From Chiloscyllium plagiosum (Eukaryota), in assembly GCF_004010195.1 (NCBI RefSeq), contig NC_057719.1:12723872-12787871 (forward strand): DNA of 64,000 nucleotides, in the 5' to 3' direction. This document shows, piece by piece, positions 4,425 to 55,705 of the stretch (its first letter is position 1; the number at the start of each line of letters is the position of its first letter). Position numbers and translations under genes: made by a program. A model generated the notes under the pieces. That model was not told where the DNA came from. It worked only from the letters and a program-made list of their open reading frames with translations, and made no database searches.

Positions 4425-6035
4425 ACAGATTTTGAGGTAAGGTGCAGAAGGTTTAGAGGGGATGAATCTTTCATTCATTAGGGTGGTGGGAATCTAGAAC
4501 TCACTACCTGTAAGGGTGGTAGAGACAGAAATTCTCATAACATTTTAAGAAACGGTTAAAGGTGGATAAATACCCAGGATCTGATCAGGTGTACCCGAGA
4601 ACTCTGTGGGTAGCTAGAGAAGTGATTGCTGGGCCTCTTACTGAGATATTTGTATCATCAATAGTCACAGGTGAGGTGCCGGAAGACTGGAGGTTGGCAA
4701 ACGTGGTGCCACTGTTTAAGAAGTGCGGTAAAGACAAGCCAGGGTCTATAGACTGGTGATCCTGACCTCAGTGGTAGGCAAGTTGTTGGAGGGAATCCTG
4801 AGGGACAGGATGTACATGTATTTGGAAAAGCGAGGACTGATTAGGGATAGTCAATATGGCTTTCTGCATGGGAAATCATGTCTCACAAACTTGATTGAGT
4901 TTTTTGANNNNNNNNNNNNNNNNNNNNNNNNNNNNNNNNNNNNNNNNNNNNNNNNNNNNNNNNNNNNNNNNNNNNNNNNNNNNNNNNNNNNNNNNNNNNN
5001 NNNNNNNNNNNNNNNNNNNNNNNNNNNNNNNNNNNNNNNNNNNNNNNNNNNNNNNNNNNNNNNNNNNNNNNNNNNNNNNNNNNNNNNNNNNNNNNNNNNN
5101 NNNNNNNNNNNNNNNNNNNNNNNNNNNNNNNNNNNNNNNNNNNNNNNNNNNNNNNNNNNNNNNNNNNNNNNNNNNNNNNNNNNNNNNNNNNNNNNNNNNN
5201 NNNNNNNNNNNNNNNNNNNNNNNNNNNNNNNNNNNNNNNNNNNNNNNNNNNNNNNNNNNNNNNNNNNNNNNNNNNNNNNNNNNNNNNNNNNNNNNNNNNN
5301 NNNNNNNNNNNNNNNNNNNNNNNNNNNNNNNNNNNNNNNNNNNNNNNNNNNNNNNNNNNNNNNNNNNNNNNNNNNNNNNNNNNNNNNNNNNNNNNNNNNN
5401 NNNNNNNNNNNNNNNNNNNNNNNNNNNNNNNNNNNNNNNNNNNNNNNNNNNNNNNNNNNNNNNNNNNNNNNNNNNNNNNNNNNNNNNNNNNNNNNNNNNN
5501 NNNNNNNNNNNNNNNNNNNNNNNNNNNNNNNNNNNNNNNNNNNNNNNNNNNNNNNNNNNNNNNNNNNNNNNNNNNNNNNNNNNNNNNNNNNNNNNNNNNN
5601 NNNNNNNNGGGCATAGGTTTAGGGTGAGAGGGGAAAGATATAAAAGGGACCTAAGGGGCAACCTTTTCACGCAGAGGCTGGTACGTGTATGGAATGAGCT
5701 GCCAGAGGATGTGGTGGAGGCTGGTACAATTGCAACATTTAAGAAGCATTTGGATGGGTATATGAATAGGAAGGGTTTGGAGGGATATGGGCCAGGTGCT
5801 GACAGGTGGGACTAGATTGGGTTGGATTATCTGGTCGGCATGGACAGGTTGGACCGAAGGGTCTGTTTTCATGCTGTACATCTCTATGACTCTAAATATT
5901 TAGATACATACTTGTGATTACAAGACAGCCAAGTGTTGGAAAACAGGATTTAAAAAGTCAGGTGGTTGTTTTTGTCTGGCGCAAACTTGATGGGCTGACA
6001 AGTCTTTTCCTGTGCTGTCAGTCTCTATGACTCTT
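4425..6035 (+). mobile_element. Young CR1 LINE (4558-5894, RT region spanning an N gap) nested in an older CR1 3' end
   Basis: DKYPGSDQVYPRTL...[16 protein letters not shown] and [14 protein letters not shown]-domain motifs; 3' end with ATGACTCT tail at 5894; older CR1 sequence on both sides. Confidence 0.85.
4908..5608. other. Assembly gap (N run)
   Basis: 701 N inside a CR1 copy. Confidence 1.
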
Positions 6036-17919: not shown

Positions 17920-20270
17920 AGTTATTAGCCTGGATAAAGGATTAGCTAACAATAGAAAAAAAGAGAGTTGGGATAAATGGGTCCTCTTCTCGTTGGCGAG
18001 ACATAACTAGTGGAGTGCCCCAAATATTTACAACCTGTATAAATGATAGAAAATACAATAGCATATGACACCAAAATAGATCAGAAAGTAAGTTGTAATG
18101 AAGAAATAAGAAGTTTACAAGTGGATGTGGATAGGTTAGGCCGATGTAGGTAAATGTGAGGTTGGAGGAATAGAATGAAAACTTATTATCTAAATGGACA
18201 GAAACCTCAGAGTGCTTTGGTGCCGAGGGATGTAGATGTCCTCATGCATGAATCATAGAAAACTAGTGTGCAGGTACAGCAGATAACAAGGGAGGCAAAT
18301 GGAATTTTGGTACTTATTGGTGAACGAATAGAGTATAAAGTAGGGTAGTGTTGCTCCAACTATACAAGCCATTAGTGAGACCACACCTGGAGTATTCTGT
18401 CCGGTTTTGCTCCCTTGAGGAGGGATGTAGTTTTATCGGAGGCAGTTCAGAGCAGGGTTACCAGATTAATTTCAGAGATGACACATTTTTCTTATAAAGA
18501 AAGATTGAGCAGTTTAGGCTTATACTCTCTGGAGTTGGGAAGAATGAGAGGAGATCTAATTGAGGTATGTGAGACACTAAAGTGGATTGACAAATTAGAC
18601 GTAGATAGGATATTTCCTCATTTGGGGCAATCCAGAATGAAGTAATAGTTTTAGGTTAAGGCGTCGCAGAAAATAGATAAGTCCCCTGGGCCTGATGGCA
18701 TTTATCCTAGGATTCTCTGGGAAGCAAGGGAGGAGATTGCAGAGCCATTGGCCTTGATTTTTATGTCCTCTTTGTCTACAGGAGTAGTGCCAGAAGACTG
18801 GAGGATAGCAAATGTGGTTCCCTTGTTCAAAAAGGGGAGTAGGGATAACCCTAGTAACTATAGGCCGGTGAGTCTCACTTCTGTTGTGGGCAAAGTCTTA
18901 GAGAGAATTGCAAGGGATAGGATTTATGCACATCTGGATAGGAATAATGTGATCAAGGATAGTCAGCATGGTTTTGTGAAGGGCAGGTCGTGCCTCACAA
19001 ACCTAATTGAATTCTTTGAAAAGGTGACGAAGGAGGTTGATGAGGGGAAAGCGGTAGATGTGGTATATATGGATTTTAGTAAGGCGTTTGATAAGGTTCC
19101 CCATGGTAGGCGACTGCAGAAAATACGGAGATATGGCATTGAGGATGAGTTGGAGGTTTGGATTAGGAATTGGCTGGATGGAAGAAGACAGAGGGTAGTA
19201 GTTGATGGCAAAGTTTCTTCATGGAGTGCCGTCACTAGCGGTGTTCCGCAAGGATCTGTTTTGGGACCATTGCTGTTTGTCATTTTTATAAATGACCTGG
19301 AAGAGGGGTTAGAAGGTTGGGTAAGATGGCAATTTCCTTCCCTAATGGGCATTAGTGAACCAGATCGGTTTCCACCCCCCAACAATGGATCCATTCTAGA
19401 TATGAATTGATCTGAAACTCCATCATCCAGCTGTGGCTGGATTTGAACTCAGGTCCCCAGCATGTTAGCCAGATCCATAGATTAACAGTTCAGTGATAAT
19501 ACCATGAGGCCATCATCAGCATTATCATACTGCTTCCCCATAAAGTGCAAATCCTTGCCTCTGATATATGATGGAACATAGCCAATAGGCCCTTCAAGCC
19601 TTATCTACTATTTAATAAGACAACAACTGATCTATTTCAACCTCAATTCCACATTCCTGTACACCCTCAATAATCTTGCACTCCCTCAGTCATCACACAG
19701 AGCTGTACAACATGGAAACAGACCCTTTGTTCCAACTTGTCCATGCTGACCAGATATCCTAGATAAATTTAAATCCCATTTGTCAGCATTTGGCCCAAGG
19801 TTCTTCACTCAGCGAGTCGTAAGTTCATGGAATGCCCTGCCAGCAGCAGTGGTGGACTCTCCCTCTTTATGGGCATTTAAGCGGGCATTGGATAGGTATA
19901 TGGAGGATAGTGGGTTAGTATAGGTTAGGTGGGCTTGGATCGGCGCAACATCGAGGGCCAAAGGGCCTGTACTGCGCTGTATTCTTCTATGTTCTATGTT
20001 CTATTTAAAACAGAGATGAGGAGAAATAGGATCACTCAAAGGGTCGTGAATCTTGTAATTTACTAACCCAGAGTGTGGTGGATGCTGGGACATTGACTAA
20101 ATGTAAGGAGGAGAGAAAGATTTTTAATTAGTAATCAATTGAAGGATAATGGAAAGCGGGAAGGAAAATGGAGTTGAGGCTGAGATGAGATTAACCATGA
20201 TAGTATCAAATGGAGGAGCAGGTTCAAGAGGCTGAACTGCCCACTTCATCTCTTAGTTCTAATGTTCGTA
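17920..20270 (+). mobile_element. Old CR1 LINE interrupted by a younger CR1 (18671-20003)
   Basis: The younger copy has an open 220-aa RT stretch ([16 protein letters not shown]...YRPVSLTS...QHGF...[11 protein letters not shown]...[13 protein letters not shown]) and a (TTCTATG)n tail at 19984-20003. The older copy resumes at TTTAAAACAGAGATGAGG. Confidence 0.85.
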
Positions 20271-40270: not shown

Positions 40271-42459
40271 TTATACCATGCTGTTCAATGGATTTTCATG
40301 ACCCCCTCAAACGTTATGCCAACCTATGGCCCTATACCCACCAAACATAGCTTTTATAAACCCATGCCAACTTCGTGCCAGGTCATGACAATACATGCCA
40401 CCTACCCATCACATTTTACCCTATTTCCTCTATGCCATCTCACCTAGCATCCAGACCTCAGGACACTTGCTAACATAAAATGAAGTTATGAATCTGTTGT
40501 TGACGTCATTATTTAAAAGAAAATATATCATTGATTAAAGTCAAAATTCCTTCAACTGATTTCTTATCGAAACAAACGTTTGCGTTCTTTGACAGATCCA
40601 GTTTTGTTTCCTACTTGCTCGTGGCCTTTGGGCACGGTTGTTGGGTTAATATGTATTGCCAATCCGTGATTGCCGCAGATCTGAGTGGCTTGCAATGGGC
40701 ATTTTATCAGCAGATCAGAGTCAACCACATTGCTGTGGGTCTGGAGTCACATAAGCCAGACCAGGTAAGGACAGCAGTCATCTTCTCTAAGGGGCATTAA
40801 TGAATTAGATGGGTTTTTATGACAATTGTCCATGTTGCATTTGGGACAAGCTTTTAATTCAGATTTTTTTGTAAGGAATCCCAATTTCACAGTCTACCGT
40901 GGTGCAGTTTAAACATGTCTCCAGAATATTGGTCTGGGATTCTGGATTACTAGTCCAACAATGTTGCCACTAGGCATTCCGCACTTACCATGAAAACTTC
41001 TTGTCTAATTTTCACAATCCTAAAGAGATTTGGGTCTGCACTGGGTTCCAAACAATGGGAATTATAAAATCCAATTTAAGTAGCCAGCTATCTCCAGAAA
41101 CCATGCATTTGTGAAGCCCAGCACTTCAGTAAATACACCCCTGCAACAATCAAAAATGATTCATGAGGGAGCTGGACTTTCAATGATCAGGGATTTTCGG
41201 AGAATTTTCTATCTTGTTAGGCATTGCATCATCAAAAAAACTTGTATATATTAAACTCAGCATGTTTTTCTAAGTCATGAACTTGTAAATATCCAACACT
41301 GATCTTAGTAGCACCTAAATGTTTACAGAAAGCCAACTTGTAAATGCCCCTTTTATCCTTTCCCTGATAATTTTCTGAGTGTCTTCTGAGCATCACCTTA
41401 GTAAGAAATTCCAGAGTTTTGCAATGATTAATGTTGCTGATTGATTTATGTTTTCTTGATTTCTCTCTCTCCTTTCTTTCTTGAATTGCAGTGTTGCATT
41501 TGCTCTAGTTCACCGTACATGTTCTACAGTCCACAGAGTTTTGGAAAATCTCAGTGAATGTGATCACTATCTCTGCAGTCACCTCGAGAACGTAAATCAC
41601 CAGCTCCAGGGAAAATGTTTTCAGTCTCATTAGTTCATCTCACACTGTTCCTCTACTGATATTAGTTAGTTAAAGTTCTTCACCCTCGTTCACCCTTGCT
41701 TTGTTTTGATTGGTGTGCACATTTTCCTGAGATGGGTGTTTTTTTTTAATGCCTCTGCCATTTCCTTCTTTCTCCTTACGAAATTTCCTTACACACTCTA
41801 AGGCACCGAGACTTACATTTGCTATTCGCTTTTGTAGAGACTCTGACAATTTGTTCTAATATTGCTGGGCTAGTTTCGTCTCAATCCTATCTTTCTCTTT
41901 TATATAATCCAGTTTGATTGTCCTTTATTGCTTTCCTAAATTCTAGCAAGCTTCAGGTTCAATCTGAGTATTTATTGTGTTACTTCATTAAAATTGTTGT
42001 TCGTATGACTATGTTAGTTGTATTAATCAATTTATTTACATTTTTTGTATATTCTCTCAGCACTGAGATCAAACCACTTCCTGCTGTCACTGTTATACCT
42101 GCCCCCTTTCTCACTGTTTAATCCCAGCGACCTCTCTTAATGCGTTATCCCAGCTTCCACTTTCACCATTTTATCTCAGCTCTGCTCCCTGCGAGCAAGC
42201 ATGTAGTTTCATGAATATATTTATGGCTGTGTCTGCTCATATGATTTGTGTATATTTGTTCGTTTGAGTGTGTGCATGCATGTGTGTGTGTGTGTGTGTG
42301 TGTGAGGGGGTAGGGAAGCGGGAGTGTTTTATGAGTAGGTGAGACCTTGTACATGTATCAGTGCATTCAGAACAATCAGTGAATGGGAATGGGTGGATCC
42401 AATGCTGGATGTGGGGTCTGGGGAAATCAAACTGTACCCCTTCCCCGGGGCAAAATGCA

Positions 42460-42514
42460 CTGGCAGGGGAGATACCGTGCTGCAAAAGATGGTTCTCCCT
42501 GGACGAGTCTGAGC
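42460..42514 (+). pseudogene. RNU1: U1 snRNA 5' fragment (about nt 9-63) forming the head of a Tx1-like element
   Basis: CTGGCAGGGGAGATACC-GTGCTGCAAAAGATGGTTCTCCCTGGACGAGTCTGAGC aligns without gaps to U1 CTGGCAGGGGAGATACC-ATGATCACGAAGGTGGTTTTCCCAGGGCGAGGCTTATC (42/55 by hand against recalled human U1; first 17 nt exact). It lacks the ATACTTAC 5' end, the Sm site and any evident PSE. Confidence 0.8.
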
Positions 42515-42543
42515 TAAGAACCTTCATCATCAGAAGATCTTTG

Positions 42544-42867
42544 TGGGCGGCACGGTGGCCCAGTGGTTAGCACTGCTGCCTCACAGTGCCTGTAGACCCG
42601 GGTTCAATTCCCGACTCAGGCGACTGACTGTGTGGAGTTTGCACATTCTCCCCGTGTCTGCGTGGGTTTCCTCCGGGTGCTCCGGTTTCCTCCCACAGTC
42701 CAAAAGATGTGCGGGTCAGGTGAATTGGCCATGCTAAATTGCCCGTAGTGTTAGGTTAAAGGGGTAAAGGTAGGGGTATGGGTGGGTTGCGCTTCGGTGG
42801 GTCGGTGTGGACTTGTTGGGCCGAAGGGCCTGTTTCCACACTGTAAGTAATCTAATCTAATCTAATC
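42544..42867 (+). mobile_element. HE1 SINE, full length, in the Tx1 5' UTR
   Basis: Consensus head, body and (TAATC)n tail. Confidence 0.9.
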
Positions 42868-42994
42868 TTGACATCATCACCAGATTGTGATTGCGAGTGG
42901 AAGCTGGTGGATCGTCAGTTGAGCTGAGCTGCAATTGGTGAACCGTTATGCTGGCTTCGGCCAAGGCCGATTCAGTGTCCAGCCAATCAGAGTG

Positions 42995-44290
42995 ATGGCC
43001 TCTGCTAGTGCCCACATCCCAGGCCAGGGGGGTCCGCAGTACAATCAGGGTGATGGTGAAGAAGCTGGAGGAAGGATCACTGATCAACCAAACCTCCTTG
43101 GTGAGGAGAGTCCTCCTAGATTGCTGCAGGTTCCCAGCAGCAGATATTTCCCAAAACTTCGATGTAACCTTCAGGAACGTGAAGCAATGTGAACATCTCC
43201 TGATGGTATTTGAGGAGAAAGGAGGTGAGGGTCTCCATCCTGTCTGTGGCACCATTATTTGTTCTCCCTGCACAGAGCAGCCGGGTTGTTACAAACCACA
43301 CAGACAACCCACACATCTCGGCAGCGAATGTCCTGATTTTCCAGGGAATAGGTTGAAGTAGGCAGCACTGATTAGTGGACCCTTTTGGAATCTGGACCAG
43401 CAAGCGCAGGTCATGGTGACCCTGAAGTTAGTGGGAGCATCTTCCACCCATGCTCCCGCTTCCCGATCAGAGAGAGCTAAGGCTGCCTGACTCTTGTGGG
43501 ATGGCCGAGAGTGTGTCAAACCTACGGGAGGGCCAGGCACAGGGCAGCGGGCTGTAACATGACCTTCTGCAGGTACTGCATATGGAAGGGCCACCTGATG
43601 AAGGGGTCCTAGAGCCGTATCCTGTGTGGGGAATAGGACCATCTGTATAAGGCCTGACCAAGGGGGGAGTGGGGAGCACATGCCAGAAGTGGCAACCTGA
43701 GCCATGGACACCATGTGGTGCCACCCTCCAGCAAGTAAACTGATACACAGAAAGAGGGACAGGCTGGAGAGGAGGAAAAAGTAGCACAACAATCGACTTC
43801 ACCTCCACCTGAATAAATGGAGTCGATGGAGGGGGTGGGGAGGAGCAAATGAAGGAGGCGGGGGAATGGATATCAGTGAGGAACAACCGGAAAAGGAAAT
43901 TGGAATGGATATCAGTGAGGAACAACCGGAAAAGGAAATTACATCTGCCCCATGGTCCCATGGAAAGAGGCAGCTGCACGAAGGACACACCAGCAGCTCC
44001 TTTGAGGATGAAGCCATGTGGAGGGATGGTCACCAACAGAAAATAAGACACAGCACCATAGGGAAGAAGGCGAGGAGCAACATCCCACAACCTGGAAATG
44101 TTGGGCATCCCAAGGGGCCCAGTGAAGCCGTCGAGAACAAGGTGGTCCCCGACACTGTTCCTGATCCATTCTCAGTCCCAGTCACTGTTCCAGCTCCTGA
44201 CCAGTGCCAGTCCCAGTCACTGTTCCTGATCCTGTTCCAGTGTCACTCCCAGCCATTGTTCCAGTTCCTGATCCAGTACCAGTTCCAGTC
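42995..44290 (+). pseudogene. Degenerate Tx1 ORF1 (ZCCHC3-like RRM + 3x CCHC zinc knuckle)
   Basis: MASASAHIPGQG/VRSTIRVMVKK...FDVTFRNVKQCEHLLMVFEEK, VDPFGIWTSK, then knuckles CQTYGRARHRAAGC, CRYCIWKGHLMKGS and RILCGE*DHLYKA* (43510-43660). These parallel ZCCHC3 FDVSFRS...VYEEK, DRFGIWTG and its three knuckles. Multiple frameshifts and stops. Confidence 0.75.
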
Positions 44291-44292
44291 AC

Positions 44293-44577
44293 TGGAGAAA
44301 CGTGCAGTGGTCTTTGTTGAGATTCACCCCAAGCAGCTCCATGACGCAGGATTCTGTGCTCTGGGGTCTATCCCCCGGGATGCACACTGAGACAAACATG
44401 AACTGTGACTGGAGGACAGTTTACTCAGTGAAAAATGCTCTTTGGTCTGCCTGAAACTTTTTGGTCTTCCAAAGCAAAGAATCGACCTAGAATAAGTGTT
44501 GCAGACTGGCACATGACTATGTGATGAGGGACACACTGAAGCTTGGGGCAGCAAAGTGCAGAAAGATCACTGTCTGA
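44293..44577 (+). pseudogene. Tx1 ORF2 extreme C-terminus remnant
   Basis: One frame reads WRNVQWSLLRFTPSSSMTQDSVLWGLSPGMHTETNMNCDWRTVYSVKNALWSA*NFLVFQSKEST*NKCCRLAHDYVMRDTLKLGAA; the W...LW..RN..VF pattern is that of the L1/Tx1 post-CCHC tail. Confidence 0.7.
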
Positions 44578-44705
44578 TGCCTTTCTCTTGAAGTTAAATG
44601 GGCGTCCGTACAGTTATCAGACCATCCTGGAGCTTCAGATATGTAAATATAATTTGGTACAAGTAAAAAATTCCTTTGGTTTGTTGGATGGACTCAAGCT
44701 CCAAT

Positions 44706-46165
44706 AGGTTCCCCATGGGAGACTGATTAGTAAGGTTAGATCTCATGGAATTCAGAGAGAACTAGCCATTTCGATACAGAACTGGCTCAAAGGTAGAAGA
44801 CAGAGGGTGGTAGTGGAGGCTTGTTTTTCGGACTGGAGGTCTGTGACCAGTGGAGTGCCACAAGGATCAGTGCTAGGTCCTCTACTTTTTGTCATTTACA
44901 TAAATGATTTGGGTGCGAGCATAAGAGATACAGTTTGTAAGTTTGCAGATGACACCAAAATTGGAGGTGTGGTGGACAGCGAAGAGGGTTACCTCAGATT
45001 ACAACAGAATCTTGACCAGACGGGCTGAGAAGTAGCAGATGGAGTTTGATTCAGATAAATGCGAGGTGCTGCATTTTGGGAAAGCAAATCTTAGCAGGAT
45101 TTATACACTTAATGGTAAGGTCCTAGGGAGTGTTGCTGAACAAAGAGACCTTGAAGTGTAGTTTCATAGCTCCTTTAAAGTGGAGTCACAGGTAGATAGG
45201 ATAGTGAAGAAGGCGTTTGGTATGCTTTCCTTTATTGGTCAGCGTATTGAGTACAGGAGTTGGGAGGTCATATTGCGGCTGTACAGGACATTGGTTAGGC
45301 CACTGTTGGAATATTGCATGCAATTCTGGTCTCCTTCCTATCGAAAAGATGTTGTGAAACTTGAACAGGTTCAGAAAAGATTTACAAGAATGTTGCCAGG
45401 GTTGGAGGATTTGAGCTACAGGGAGAGGCTGAACAGGCTGAAGATGTTTTCCCTGGAGCGTCGGAAGCTGAGGGGTGACCTTATAGAGGTTTATAAAATT
45501 ATGAGGGGCATGGATAGGGTAAATATGCAAAGTCCCTGGTGTGGGGGAGTCCAGAACTAGAGGGCATAGGTTTAGGGTGAGAGGGGAAAGACCTGAAGGG
45601 CAACTTTTTCACACAGAGGGTTTTTAGATTAGATTAGATTACTTACAGGGTGGAAACAGGCCCTTCGGCCCAACAAGTCCACACCACCCCACCGAAGCGC
45701 TACCCACCCATACCCCTACATTTACCCCTTACCTAACACTATGGGCAATTTAGCATGGCCAATTCACCTGACCTGTACATTTTTGGACTGTGGGGGGAAA
45801 CCGGAGCACCCGGAGGAAACCCACGCAGACACGGGGAGAACGTGCAAACTCCACACAGTCAGTCACCTGAGGCGGGAATTGAACCCGGGTCTCTGGCGCT
45901 GTGAGGCAGTAGTGCTAACCACTGTGCCACCATGCCGCCCACTAAGGGATGGTACGGGTATGGAATGAGCTGCCAGAGGAAGTGGTGGAGGCTGGTACAA
46001 TTGCAACATTTAAGAAGCATTTGGTTGGGTATATGAATAGGAAGGGATTGGAGGGATATGGGCCAGGTGCTGGCAGGTGGGACTAGATTGGGTTGGGATA
46101 TCTGGTTGGCATGGACAGGTTGGATCGAAGGGTTTGTTTCCATGCAGTACATCTCTATGACTCTA
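44706..46165 (+). mobile_element. CR1/HER1 LINE, 5'-truncated, inserted in the Tx1 3' UTR
   Basis: [20 protein letters not shown]...KFADDTKIGG and LYRTLVRPLLEYCMQFWSP; ATGACTCT tail. Confidence 0.9.
45624..45941 (-). mobile_element. HE1 SINE nested in CR1
   Basis: Reverse complement of the HE1 consensus; the CR1 resumes after it. Confidence 0.9.
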
Positions 46166-47619
46166 TTTGTTTGTTTCTTATGCTATTGTACAGAACCAAA
46201 CTGCTTCAGTGACTATATATACATATATGTATGGATATAAAGATATTTTTATGAATAAAGTATAATATTGAAATTAAAAAATTGCACTGCGTGGACTCCC
46301 ACCTCCCCAGAGGATTTCCGGTTTCTTTTCTATAAATGAAGATCAGGGATGCCGGGGTTACCACCCTCTCTAGTGTATTCCCTTTTCCATTCTCACTTAT
46401 TCACCCATACCCTGGCTTCCAGCTCCTCCCGTCCCAGGGCGAAGCGCTAGATGTGGATCGCTCAGCCCTAATCGACCCCCACCCTAGGGATGATTCTACG
46501 TGTACATGAATCGCCACGGGCGTTGATGTTGGAGGGCTTGTGGACGTATTTTTGTTAAATACACAGAGAACACTGGAGAAACACAACAGGTGTGACCGCA
46601 TTTGTGGAGAGCGAGCTAAAGACCAGGATGACTTCTTCTGCTGAAGAAACGTTAATTCTGTTTCTCTCTCCACAGATGCTGCTGGACTTCCAGCAATTTC
46701 TGTTTTTATTTCCCATTTCCAGTACCTGCAGTATTTTACCTTTACTTGTATGTATATGTGTGCGTGAGAAGGAGTGTATGCATTTGTGCAAGTGAGCGTA
46801 TCTATGTGGGCGTGTGTAAGTGTAAACACGTGCATGTATACGGTATTGGGAGACTGTTGTGGACACATTGGCACTCAGTAGTGTGGGACAGTTGCTGTGA
46901 CATGCCTGAAGGTTATCTAATGATATCCTGGGGGCACCTGGTGCCCACCTATTTGCAGCGACAGTACCATTTACGCCCTGCATGCTGCCTTCACATCACC
47001 TTCGAACTATAACAACCATCTTTCTCTCTCTAGCTCGTTTTGTTGTTTATTTCTCTCGTCCTCTCTTCCTCCCCCCTTGCATGTTGGCTTGCTTTCATTT
47101 CCCAAGTATTTTTGTTTCAGCCTGATCTCCCTGGTCGCCTCCAACTGTCCGTGTTGAAAGGCCAGTCTATTCTGACGTTCTTTTCCTCACTTTTAATCTT
47201 AAAAAGACATCTCTGTTTCTATCTCATTTTCGACCTGCCTTCCCTAAAATTTGCTGTGCTATTGCTTTTTAAAATCCGAGATAGCTGAACGAGCAATGCC
47301 CTTTCCTCAATGCCCCATTCCCCTTTTCCTTTCAACTTCGCCGGCGCCAGGAAAAATCGACATTAACAAAACATCAACGACACGGTGTTGTGCTACCAAT
47401 TTAGTCACCAACGATGTTAGTGGGGATGGAGGGGACGGAAGATTATATCAAAATGACTGATTAGCGGGGATTACTATTATATAACTTGCCGAACGGAGCG
47501 TTCCCTTTATTTGGTGTAATCTTTCCCATTCCGGTATCATGGTCTTGGAAGAAAATTACTCACCACATGACAGGAGTGTACTACCCGTCACTTCATCCCC
47601 ATCTCTTTTTTTCCCCCTT

Positions 47620-55023: not shown

Positions 55024-55705
55024 CATGTGTGTGNNNNNNNNNNNNNNNNNNNNNNNNNNNNNNNNNNNNNNNNNNNNNNNNNNNNNNNNNNNNNNNNNNN
55101 NNNNNNNNNNNNNNNNNNNNNNNNNNNNNNNNNNNNNNNNNNNNNNNNNNNNNNNNNNNNTCACACACACTTCCTCTCTCACACTAGCACTGTCTAACTC
55201 ACACTATTTCTCACTTTCTCACGCACACACTCTTACACAATCTCTCACTCACACATACACTATCTCTCATTGTCTCACACAGTCTTTCTCACACACTTTC
55301 TGACTCGCACACACTATTTTTCACTCTGTCGCAAACACTATCCCTCACTTTATCTGTCACACACTCTATCTCTCTCTCACGCACACACTTTCTCTTCCAC
55401 GCACACACTATCTCTCGACCCGAAACGTTAACACTGATTCCTCTCTACAGATGCTTTCAGAACTGCTGAGCTTTTCCAGCAATTTCTGTTTTTGTTTCTG
55501 AATTGCAGCATCCGCAGTTCTTTCGTTTTGTACACACTATCTCACATACTTTCTCTATCTCTCTCACACACACTATCATTGTCTCTCTCACACACACACG
55601 CTTTCTCACTGTCTCACACATTCATTCTCGCAGACTCTCACATACCAGCGCACTCATTTGACACACGCAAACTTACACACGCACTCACTCATTCTCACAC
55701 ACTTG
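55024..55705. repeat. CA/CT-rich low-complexity tract with N gap (55034-55160) and a family B repeat (55415-55530)
   Basis: Runs of CACAC and TCTC; 127 N. Confidence 0.85.

Follow-up and report, generated by a model that had tools for sequence, protein, structure and literature searches.

The 64,000-nucleotide (nt) stretch of the Chiloscyllium plagiosum genome analysed here, referred to as the window (contig NC_057719.1 of assembly GCF_004010195.1, positions 12,723,872 to 12,787,871, forward strand), contains at 42452-46289 a retroelement of a family that we call W, whose 5′ end is a piece of U1 small nuclear RNA (snRNA) sequence. We found that this U1 head is almost certainly a trait of the W family as a whole, and that W and its relatives very probably prefer to insert into U1 genes at nt 37–41. 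Comparison of the sequences favours a scheme, which we consider probable, in which W would be a Tx1 lineage related to Keno, an element reportedly described by Kojima and Fujiwara in 2004: the U1 gene would be cut at nt 37, nt 37–56 would be duplicated, and the U1 promoter would drive transcription. An earlier note, made from this stretch alone, had put forward a U1-headed, U1-targeting Tx1 family as a candidate. That headline is borne out by a head common to many copies and by tails that join U1 genes at one site; it was largely right, and had been reached from a coincidental 8-mer.

Genome searches covered the 3.56-Gb assembly containing the window, and U1 positions refer to gene L059 of the same genome, a near-identical sister of which, L019, reaches 156.5 bits with the Rfam U1 model (RF00003). 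The U1 match in the window is ungapped and starts at 42460, as the earlier note had it; 42460-42507 is identical to U1 nt 9–56 at 40 of 48 positions, with a local score of 59 against a shuffle mean of 13.8 (0 of 1000 shuffles equal it), and the second-best match to nt 9–56 elsewhere in the window reaches 28/48. The similarity had been drawn out to nt 63 but stops at nt 56, with nt 57–64 identical at 3 of 8 positions; the bases upstream of the match agree with nt 1–8 at 3 of 8. RF00003, which had been put forward as a check on the head, gave a weak match on the 141 bases around it (14.5 bits, E=0.063) that did not reach the gathering score of 69.5, and U1 was absent among the matches of an Rfam search of a 5.7-kb region. 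The U1-derived head of the window element is real and ends at U1 nt 56.

At the other end of the element, ATTGCACT (46281-46288) follows the A-run and is identical to U1 nt 65–72, which had been taken as the U1 sequence continuing past the tail. The letters do agree, but TGCACTG is present at 42456-42462 and again at 46283-46289, and this repeat, likened in the earlier note to a target-site duplication, is such a duplication and, if one mismatch is allowed, reaches 11 bp (42452-42462 and 46279-46289). Because ATTGCACT lies inside the duplication and the flank beyond it is not U1-like, it is no continuation of U1: past the 8-mer, the flank scores 12 against U1 nt 73–164, a value matched by 906 of 1000 shuffles and by 1694 of 2000 real stretches of the window, so that the weak U1 similarity once proposed at 46305-46320 is unsupported. 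Scored with the 8-mer included, the same flank is equalled by 83 of 1000 shuffles. We read ATTGCACT here as part of the window copy's own duplication and its U1 likeness as chance. At the 5′ join, the last 3 bases of the 5′ duplication copy overlap U1 nt 9–11, a microhomology. In the window copy the head is truncated at U1 nt 9, and insertion took place at an ordinary site, producing a duplication of 7–11 bp.

A genome query with the head and the adjoining 5′ untranslated region (UTR) returned 23 matches. Besides the window itself, these comprised a U1 gene, a U1 pseudogene and 20 other copies, all 20 with unrelated upstream flanks. The U1 head begins at about nt 9–15 in 17 of these copies and at about nt 41 in the other three. 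A 26-letter pattern spanning the head/UTR junction (at most 3 mismatches) was found at 28 places genome-wide, 16 of them new, and at 0 controls. U1 nt 1 is reached by three of the 20 copies, at 7/8 identity, and in none of the 20 does the similarity continue into the 30 promoter-proximal bases (12/30 at best), so heads stopping at U1 nt 1 fit an RNA that starts at +1. In loop I, the window and 12 of 18 heads scored carry CA at nt 32–33, vs 0 of 27 U1 rows; these rows include one repeated gene, and the count leaves out L017 and L018, whose heads start later, while L014 is out of register there. Since this shared change is absent from U1 genes, the copies inherited the W head from a master lineage instead of each acquiring it anew. 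There is little room for doubt that the head belongs to the family, and the family is old, because its copies are only 62–85% alike.

Three U1-headed copies (L002, L016 and L022) retain endonuclease-side ORF2 (second open reading frame) sequence by tblastn, and a Pfam search of one endonuclease-side W piece gave no match. Among W copies, target-site duplications were read in the window and in L017; for L004, L011 and L016 the 3′ end was either not reached or could not be recognised. Some elements are arranged in tandem (L006, L011, L105, L091), with a tail 14–90 bases ahead of the next element's head; the spacer in L105 opens with a 10-mer resembling U1 nt 41–50 (8/10). On small contigs, L115–L118 form an amplified composite of an ORF2 end, a more diverged W-type U1 head, a 5′UTR and an inverted element tail. 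We considered these four loci, which are near-identical junction matches, as a young, U1-promoter-bearing master of W and rejected them, since they are preceded by the ORF2 end (three) or an assembly gap (one) and never by a U1 promoter.

The insertion site was mapped from a U1 search of the assembly in which the best 40 of 121 candidates were examined; those fetched included 19 promoter-bearing full U1 genes. High-identity U1 pieces starting at nt 35–46 were directly preceded by an element tail in 11 of 12 cases, and roughly one in three near-intact U1 3′ parts in the assembly has a tail in front of it. Across all loci examined, of 15 junctions between a tail and U1, 14 lie at nt 37–41 and one at nt 72 (L006 is outside this table, its tail adjoining a W head and not a U1 gene). 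An exact pattern for a tail joined to nt 37–41 yielded 7 junctions genome-wide and 0 controls. The nt 37–41 junctions stem from four 3′UTR types about 0.6–0.7 alike, the window's own type included, and copies of the same type have different U1 flanks (0.65–0.71 between L084/L076 and L074/L078) and different junction letters. L084 is informative on both sides: U1 from −31 to 46 is followed by a 5′-truncated ORF2, a tail and U1 37–164 with its downstream flank, giving a duplication of U1 nt 37–46 (10 bp). In L086 the U1 promoter and nt 1–30 lead into an ORF2 with a 521-aa reverse transcriptase (RT) frame. The L090 3′UTR aligns along that of the window (score 156, vs 106–109 for a young sister family described below) and is attached to a U1 pseudogene close to nt 37, and L041 reads W tail, U1 42–56, W 3′ fragment, tail. 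Based on these loci, a preference of W and its relatives for U1 nt 37–41 is very likely.

Several other features of the U1 loci were observed. L091 holds two tail-to-U1 joins 560 bases apart, and L085 is a U1 gene with promoter in which about nt 49–64 are deleted between two CCC runs. A variant class of U1 genes (L071, L072, L077, L093, L094), about 91% identical to the main class and with its own promoter and downstream flank, is also hit by elements; in L094 the gene is split in loop II, with U1 1–68, an element and then U1 72 onward. The U1 arrays further contain an ORF1-only family in which no ORF2 was seen (L089:5775-6043 with L078:1-1500; L074, L083, L094). The U1 head of this family is a separate one, shorter and degenerate (about nt 8–41), and its 5′ joins sit in U1 downstream flank DNA, which implies a large target deletion or duplication.

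The young sister family, of autonomous type, numbers at least 39 other copies at 94–96% (L095–L114 among the loci), and its 5′UTR is related to that of W. Of 20 copies retrieved, 14 open with the U2 5′ stem, behind which comes a degenerate stretch resembling U2. Three tails are joined to U2 precisely at Keno's published 3′ target, the sequence of which is given in the available text of PMC6136364 (exact pattern, 0 controls); one of the three belongs to the young family and none was traced to the W subfamily itself. Like patterns thus gave 7 junctions at U1 nt 37–41 vs 3 in U2. Both sites read GTTCT, 2–3 bases, CAG, with the junction 3–4 nt before this core. The young copy L088 carries U1 1–56 (56/56) ahead of a U2-head remnant, with a duplication of 10–11 bp outside U1 nt 1. 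Duplications of L097 and L098 measure at least 15–18 bp, and those of the young family range up to tens of bases. At L111:142-316, a U2 pseudogene (RF00004, 86.2 bits) carries a young element close to its 3′ end, away from Keno's site.

The preference for U1 is a loose one. The young-family tail pattern gave 947 rows, an estimated 560 or so loci once overlaps were removed, and at least 3 of these roughly 560 tails (L066, L084, L089) lie at U1 nt 35–42 vs about 0.00008 expected. That expectation takes 8 positions in each of 121 U1-like loci; any collapse of arrays would lower the excess and not abolish it. Most copies are dispersed, so that U1 targeting is a preference and not a strict specificity.

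On the scheme favoured here, the apurinic/apyrimidinic (AP)-type endonuclease would prefer the core common to U1 and U2 genes and nick 3–4 nt before it. A full-length insertion at U1 nt 37 would duplicate nt 37–56, the upstream U1 promoter would produce an RNA consisting of U1 1–56 and then the element, and reverse transcription of this chimeric RNA would spread U1-headed copies, the head thereafter being passed down, and mutating, in the master lineage. The snRNA genes of vertebrates have external promoters, according to the available text of PMC4494074. Three joins that are apparently separate, namely the W head, L088 and the L041 tandem spacer, all have nt 56 as the end of U1. The end of the head lies 20 nt past the mapped insertion site, and the duplications measured here range between 10 bp and at least 18 bp. 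We therefore find it reasonably likely, judging from these junctions, that the head was made by insertion in a U1 gene with read-through and not by a template switch. More tentatively, and with slightly less than even confidence, we suggest that one Keno-derived endonuclease lineage may hit both U1 (nt 37) and U2 (Keno's site) at positions that correspond to each other, swapping head and promoter with the gene that hosts its master copy.

Several observations weigh against parts of this account. No promoter-bearing U1 gene with an nt-56 junction was found among the best 40 of 105 matches, a weak negative because the assembly is gapped at U1-array loci, and the in-gene 5′ junctions lie at U1 nt 21, 30, 46 and 68, all with 5′-truncated elements. 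The core common to U1 and U2 is an 8-of-14 match made by eye. The junction table comes from U1-anchored searches biased to 5′ sites (best 40 of 121). Among 59 distinct young-family tails listed (contigs 1–4 only), none joins U1 and one joins U2, and U1-like sequence comes after one of 29 W-like tails, that of L041. Within the young family, a subfamily with U1 heads was sought by pattern and rejected, L088 alone being recovered.

Even granted the U1 preference, the head might stem from an RT template switch onto U1 snRNA in one ancestral copy, which later multiplied under its own promoter or one in the flank. The available text of PMC4494074 favours such an origin for the U1 and U2 heads of crocodilian SINEU and Tx1 elements, and here too heads are stacked: L004 has U2 nt ~1–53 in front of a W-type U1 head, as in SINEU, and L088 has its U1 1–56 before the U2-head remnant. 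Mutated W heads went on spreading, which means that U1 genes did not supply the head afresh, and the missing nt-56 master counts on the same side. Nonetheless, three separate joins end at nt 56, as against SINEU-2 switch points spread over up to 22 nt in what is available of PMC4494074; the 20-nt gap between head end and insertion site falls within the range of duplications (10–11 bp in L084 and L088, at least 15–18 bp in L097 and L098); and the L041 spacer sits between two elements, as a duplication would. We regard a template switch as the less likely origin, if a serious competitor, and insertion with read-through as the better account of the head.

The preference itself could be denied if chance insertions had been multiplied by array turnover and the family merely liked A|GT sites. 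GT follows 19 of the 59 listed dispersed tails (counted by eye) vs a background of 8.4%, and U1 nt 37–39 fits this; arrays homogenise, some junctions are close (3′UTR identity up to 0.98), and most copies are dispersed. What such turnover does not accommodate is the sharing of one site by four 3′UTR types about 0.6–0.7 alike, the differences in U1 flanks and junction letters within a type, and the excess of tails at U1 nt 35–42. This explanation is largely refuted and highly improbable. The earlier note had instead placed the target just before ATTGCAC in loop II, or the window copy inside a decayed U1 pseudogene, and neither is credible now. The 8-mer ATTGCACT is indeed present, and the L094 insertion does fall in loop II. 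Seven exact junctions, however, mark nt 37–41, whereas an exact pattern for tails joined to loop II (nt 52–72) gave none at nt 65 and one, at nt 72, genome-wide. Flanks of other copies, which the note had expected to show both a U1 head and ATTGCAC, do show the head, but ATTGCAC follows 0 of 29 window-like tails (40 of 802 candidates scored), and in the window it belongs to the duplication. As for a pseudogene, neither the 3′ flank, with its 906 shuffles in 1000, nor the upstream bases (3/8 to U1 1–8) resemble U1.

Keno is a Tx1-clade element with an AP-type endonuclease, specific for U2 snRNA genes (available text of PMC4494074, PMC4640811 and PMC6136364). The lineage described here resembles it in the three tails joined exactly to Keno's U2 3′ target and in the U2 5′ head of the young sister family; it differs in having more junctions at U1 nt 37–41 than in U2 (7 vs 3), in its mostly dispersed copies and in the U1 head of W. 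Keno's specificity for U2 is not seen here, where 1 of 59 listed young-family tails joins U2. By analogy, the lineage appears to work like Keno, and we do not assign it to Keno. U1-headed Tx1 elements are already known from crocodilians: in the available text of PMC4494074, Tx1-2_Crp, Tx1-2B_Crp and Tx1-4_AMi carry U1 heads and Tx1-11_Crp a U2 head, and they cluster with Keno. The targets reported there for Tx1-Mar are Mariner-N4_AMi and long terminal repeat (LTR) elements, and a legend names U5 as a Tx1 target; in the flanks of W and young copies that we read, no common sequence was seen by eye. Crocodilian Tx1-Mar and SINEU share with the present elements a probable Keno-type Tx1 character, heads taken from U1 or U2 and sometimes stacked, poly(A) and non-autonomous derivatives. 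Unlike Tx1-Mar, U1 genes here both donate the head and serve as insertion targets, and unlike SINEU, which is shorter than 500 bp and non-coding, the W copy in the window is about 2.1 kb with ORF1 and ORF2 remains.

Utopia (PMC4640811) likewise lies in an snRNA gene, its 3′ junctions being precise and its 5′ junctions variable, with 20-bp duplications in reptiles and weak specificity in some families, but it targets U2 and uses a restriction-like endonuclease, so that endonuclease class and target gene are both different. Dada-U1A/B_DR are also mobile elements at a fixed site within U1 genes; they differ in being DNA transposons with a DDE transposase, another U1 site and a 6-bp duplication (available text of PMC3706591). 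The snRNA-targeting transposons listed in 2015 (PMC4640811) are only Keno and Utopia (U2), Dada-U1 and Dada-U6. Our literature search, with Repbase, Dfam and most subscription papers outside its reach, found no U1-targeting non-LTR element, and hence no LINE (long interspersed nuclear element) preferring U1, in print.

Transcription of snRNA-headed elements is a puzzle because snRNA promoters lie upstream of the gene; the available text of PMC4494074 ascribes the heads to template switching and leaves their transcription open. That the gene donating the head is also the insertion target, with the head ending 20 nt past the site, suggests a testable answer, namely that the element borrows the U1 promoter from within the gene. 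A LINE that prefers U1 yet keeps Keno's U2 site would represent a target shift mappable on the endonuclease. If true, a two-target lineage would explain in concrete terms where snRNA-headed Tx1 elements and SINEU come from and how they are transcribed. For its part, the copy in the window is an inert fossil.

The element, a Tx1 retroelement in the earlier note, is Tx1/L1-like. The family fits a Tx1/L1-type non-LTR retrotransposon in having an ORF1 with RNA-binding domains and zinc knuckles, an ORF2, poly(A) and a target-site duplication. Domains recovered at the level of the family are RBD_ZCCHC3_1st/2nd, zf-CCHC, RVT_1 and, just under the cut-off, zf-RVT; ORF2 homologues carry PF03372, and ORF1 of the U1-array copies matches both ZCCHC3 domains plus zinc knuckles. 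The closest ORF2 proteins, 36–54% identical, come from amphibians, fish, lancelet and coral, and none carries a family label; among ORF2 relatives are a zebrafish 'pol-like protein' (BAC82621.1, 39%) and a horn-shark model (53% over 64% of the query). The element in the window is composed as follows.

42452-42462, + strand: target-site duplication, 5′ copy, 11 bp, 10/11 identical to the 3′ copy, exact core 42456-42462.
42460-42507, + strand: U1-derived head, nt 9–56, 40/48, carrying the family loop-I change at nt 32–33.
42508-42545, + strand: 5′UTR, first part; other copies have the same head junction.
42546-42868, + strand: SINE-like (short interspersed nuclear element) later insertion ending in TAATC repeats; other copies are continuous across the site.
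42869-42995, + strand: 5′UTR, second part, 75% identical over 52 nt to the 5′UTR of L088 (young U2-headed sister family).
42996-44291, + strand: broken ORF1 with a low-complexity C-terminal part; ZCCHC3-type RNA-binding domain at E=0.0026, under the Pfam cut-off.
44292-44560, + strand: ORF2 C-terminus stub (tblastn, P0003 residues 1044-1086 at 44323-44451).
44561-44705, + strand: 3′UTR, first part.
44706-46165, + strand: unrelated LINE fragment, later insertion (RVT_1, E=1.1e-10).
About 45626-45940, inverted: SINE nested inside the LINE fragment.
46166-46281, + strand: 3′UTR, second part, with AATAAA at 46254-46259 and a short A-run at 46276-46281.
46279-46289, + strand: target-site duplication, 3′ copy, holding ATTGCACT = U1 nt 65–72.

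Since other copies read across both the SINE-like and the LINE insert, these came later; we take the former (42546-42868) to be a tRNA-SINE, and the latter (44706-46165) is presumably a CR1 fragment. Without nested insertions the element measures about 2.1 kb. Its ORF1 is 69% identical at the nucleotide level to that of the U1-array copies, and nearly all of ORF2 is gone, the endonuclease and RT having been deleted. The window copy is an old, dead, internally deleted Tx1-type LINE of the W family, unable to mobilise itself. Elsewhere in the window, runs of N (assembly gaps) occupy 4908-5608 and 55034-55160, and a further RT fragment at 18664-19311 shows weak similarity (26–30%) to Tx1-type ORF2s.

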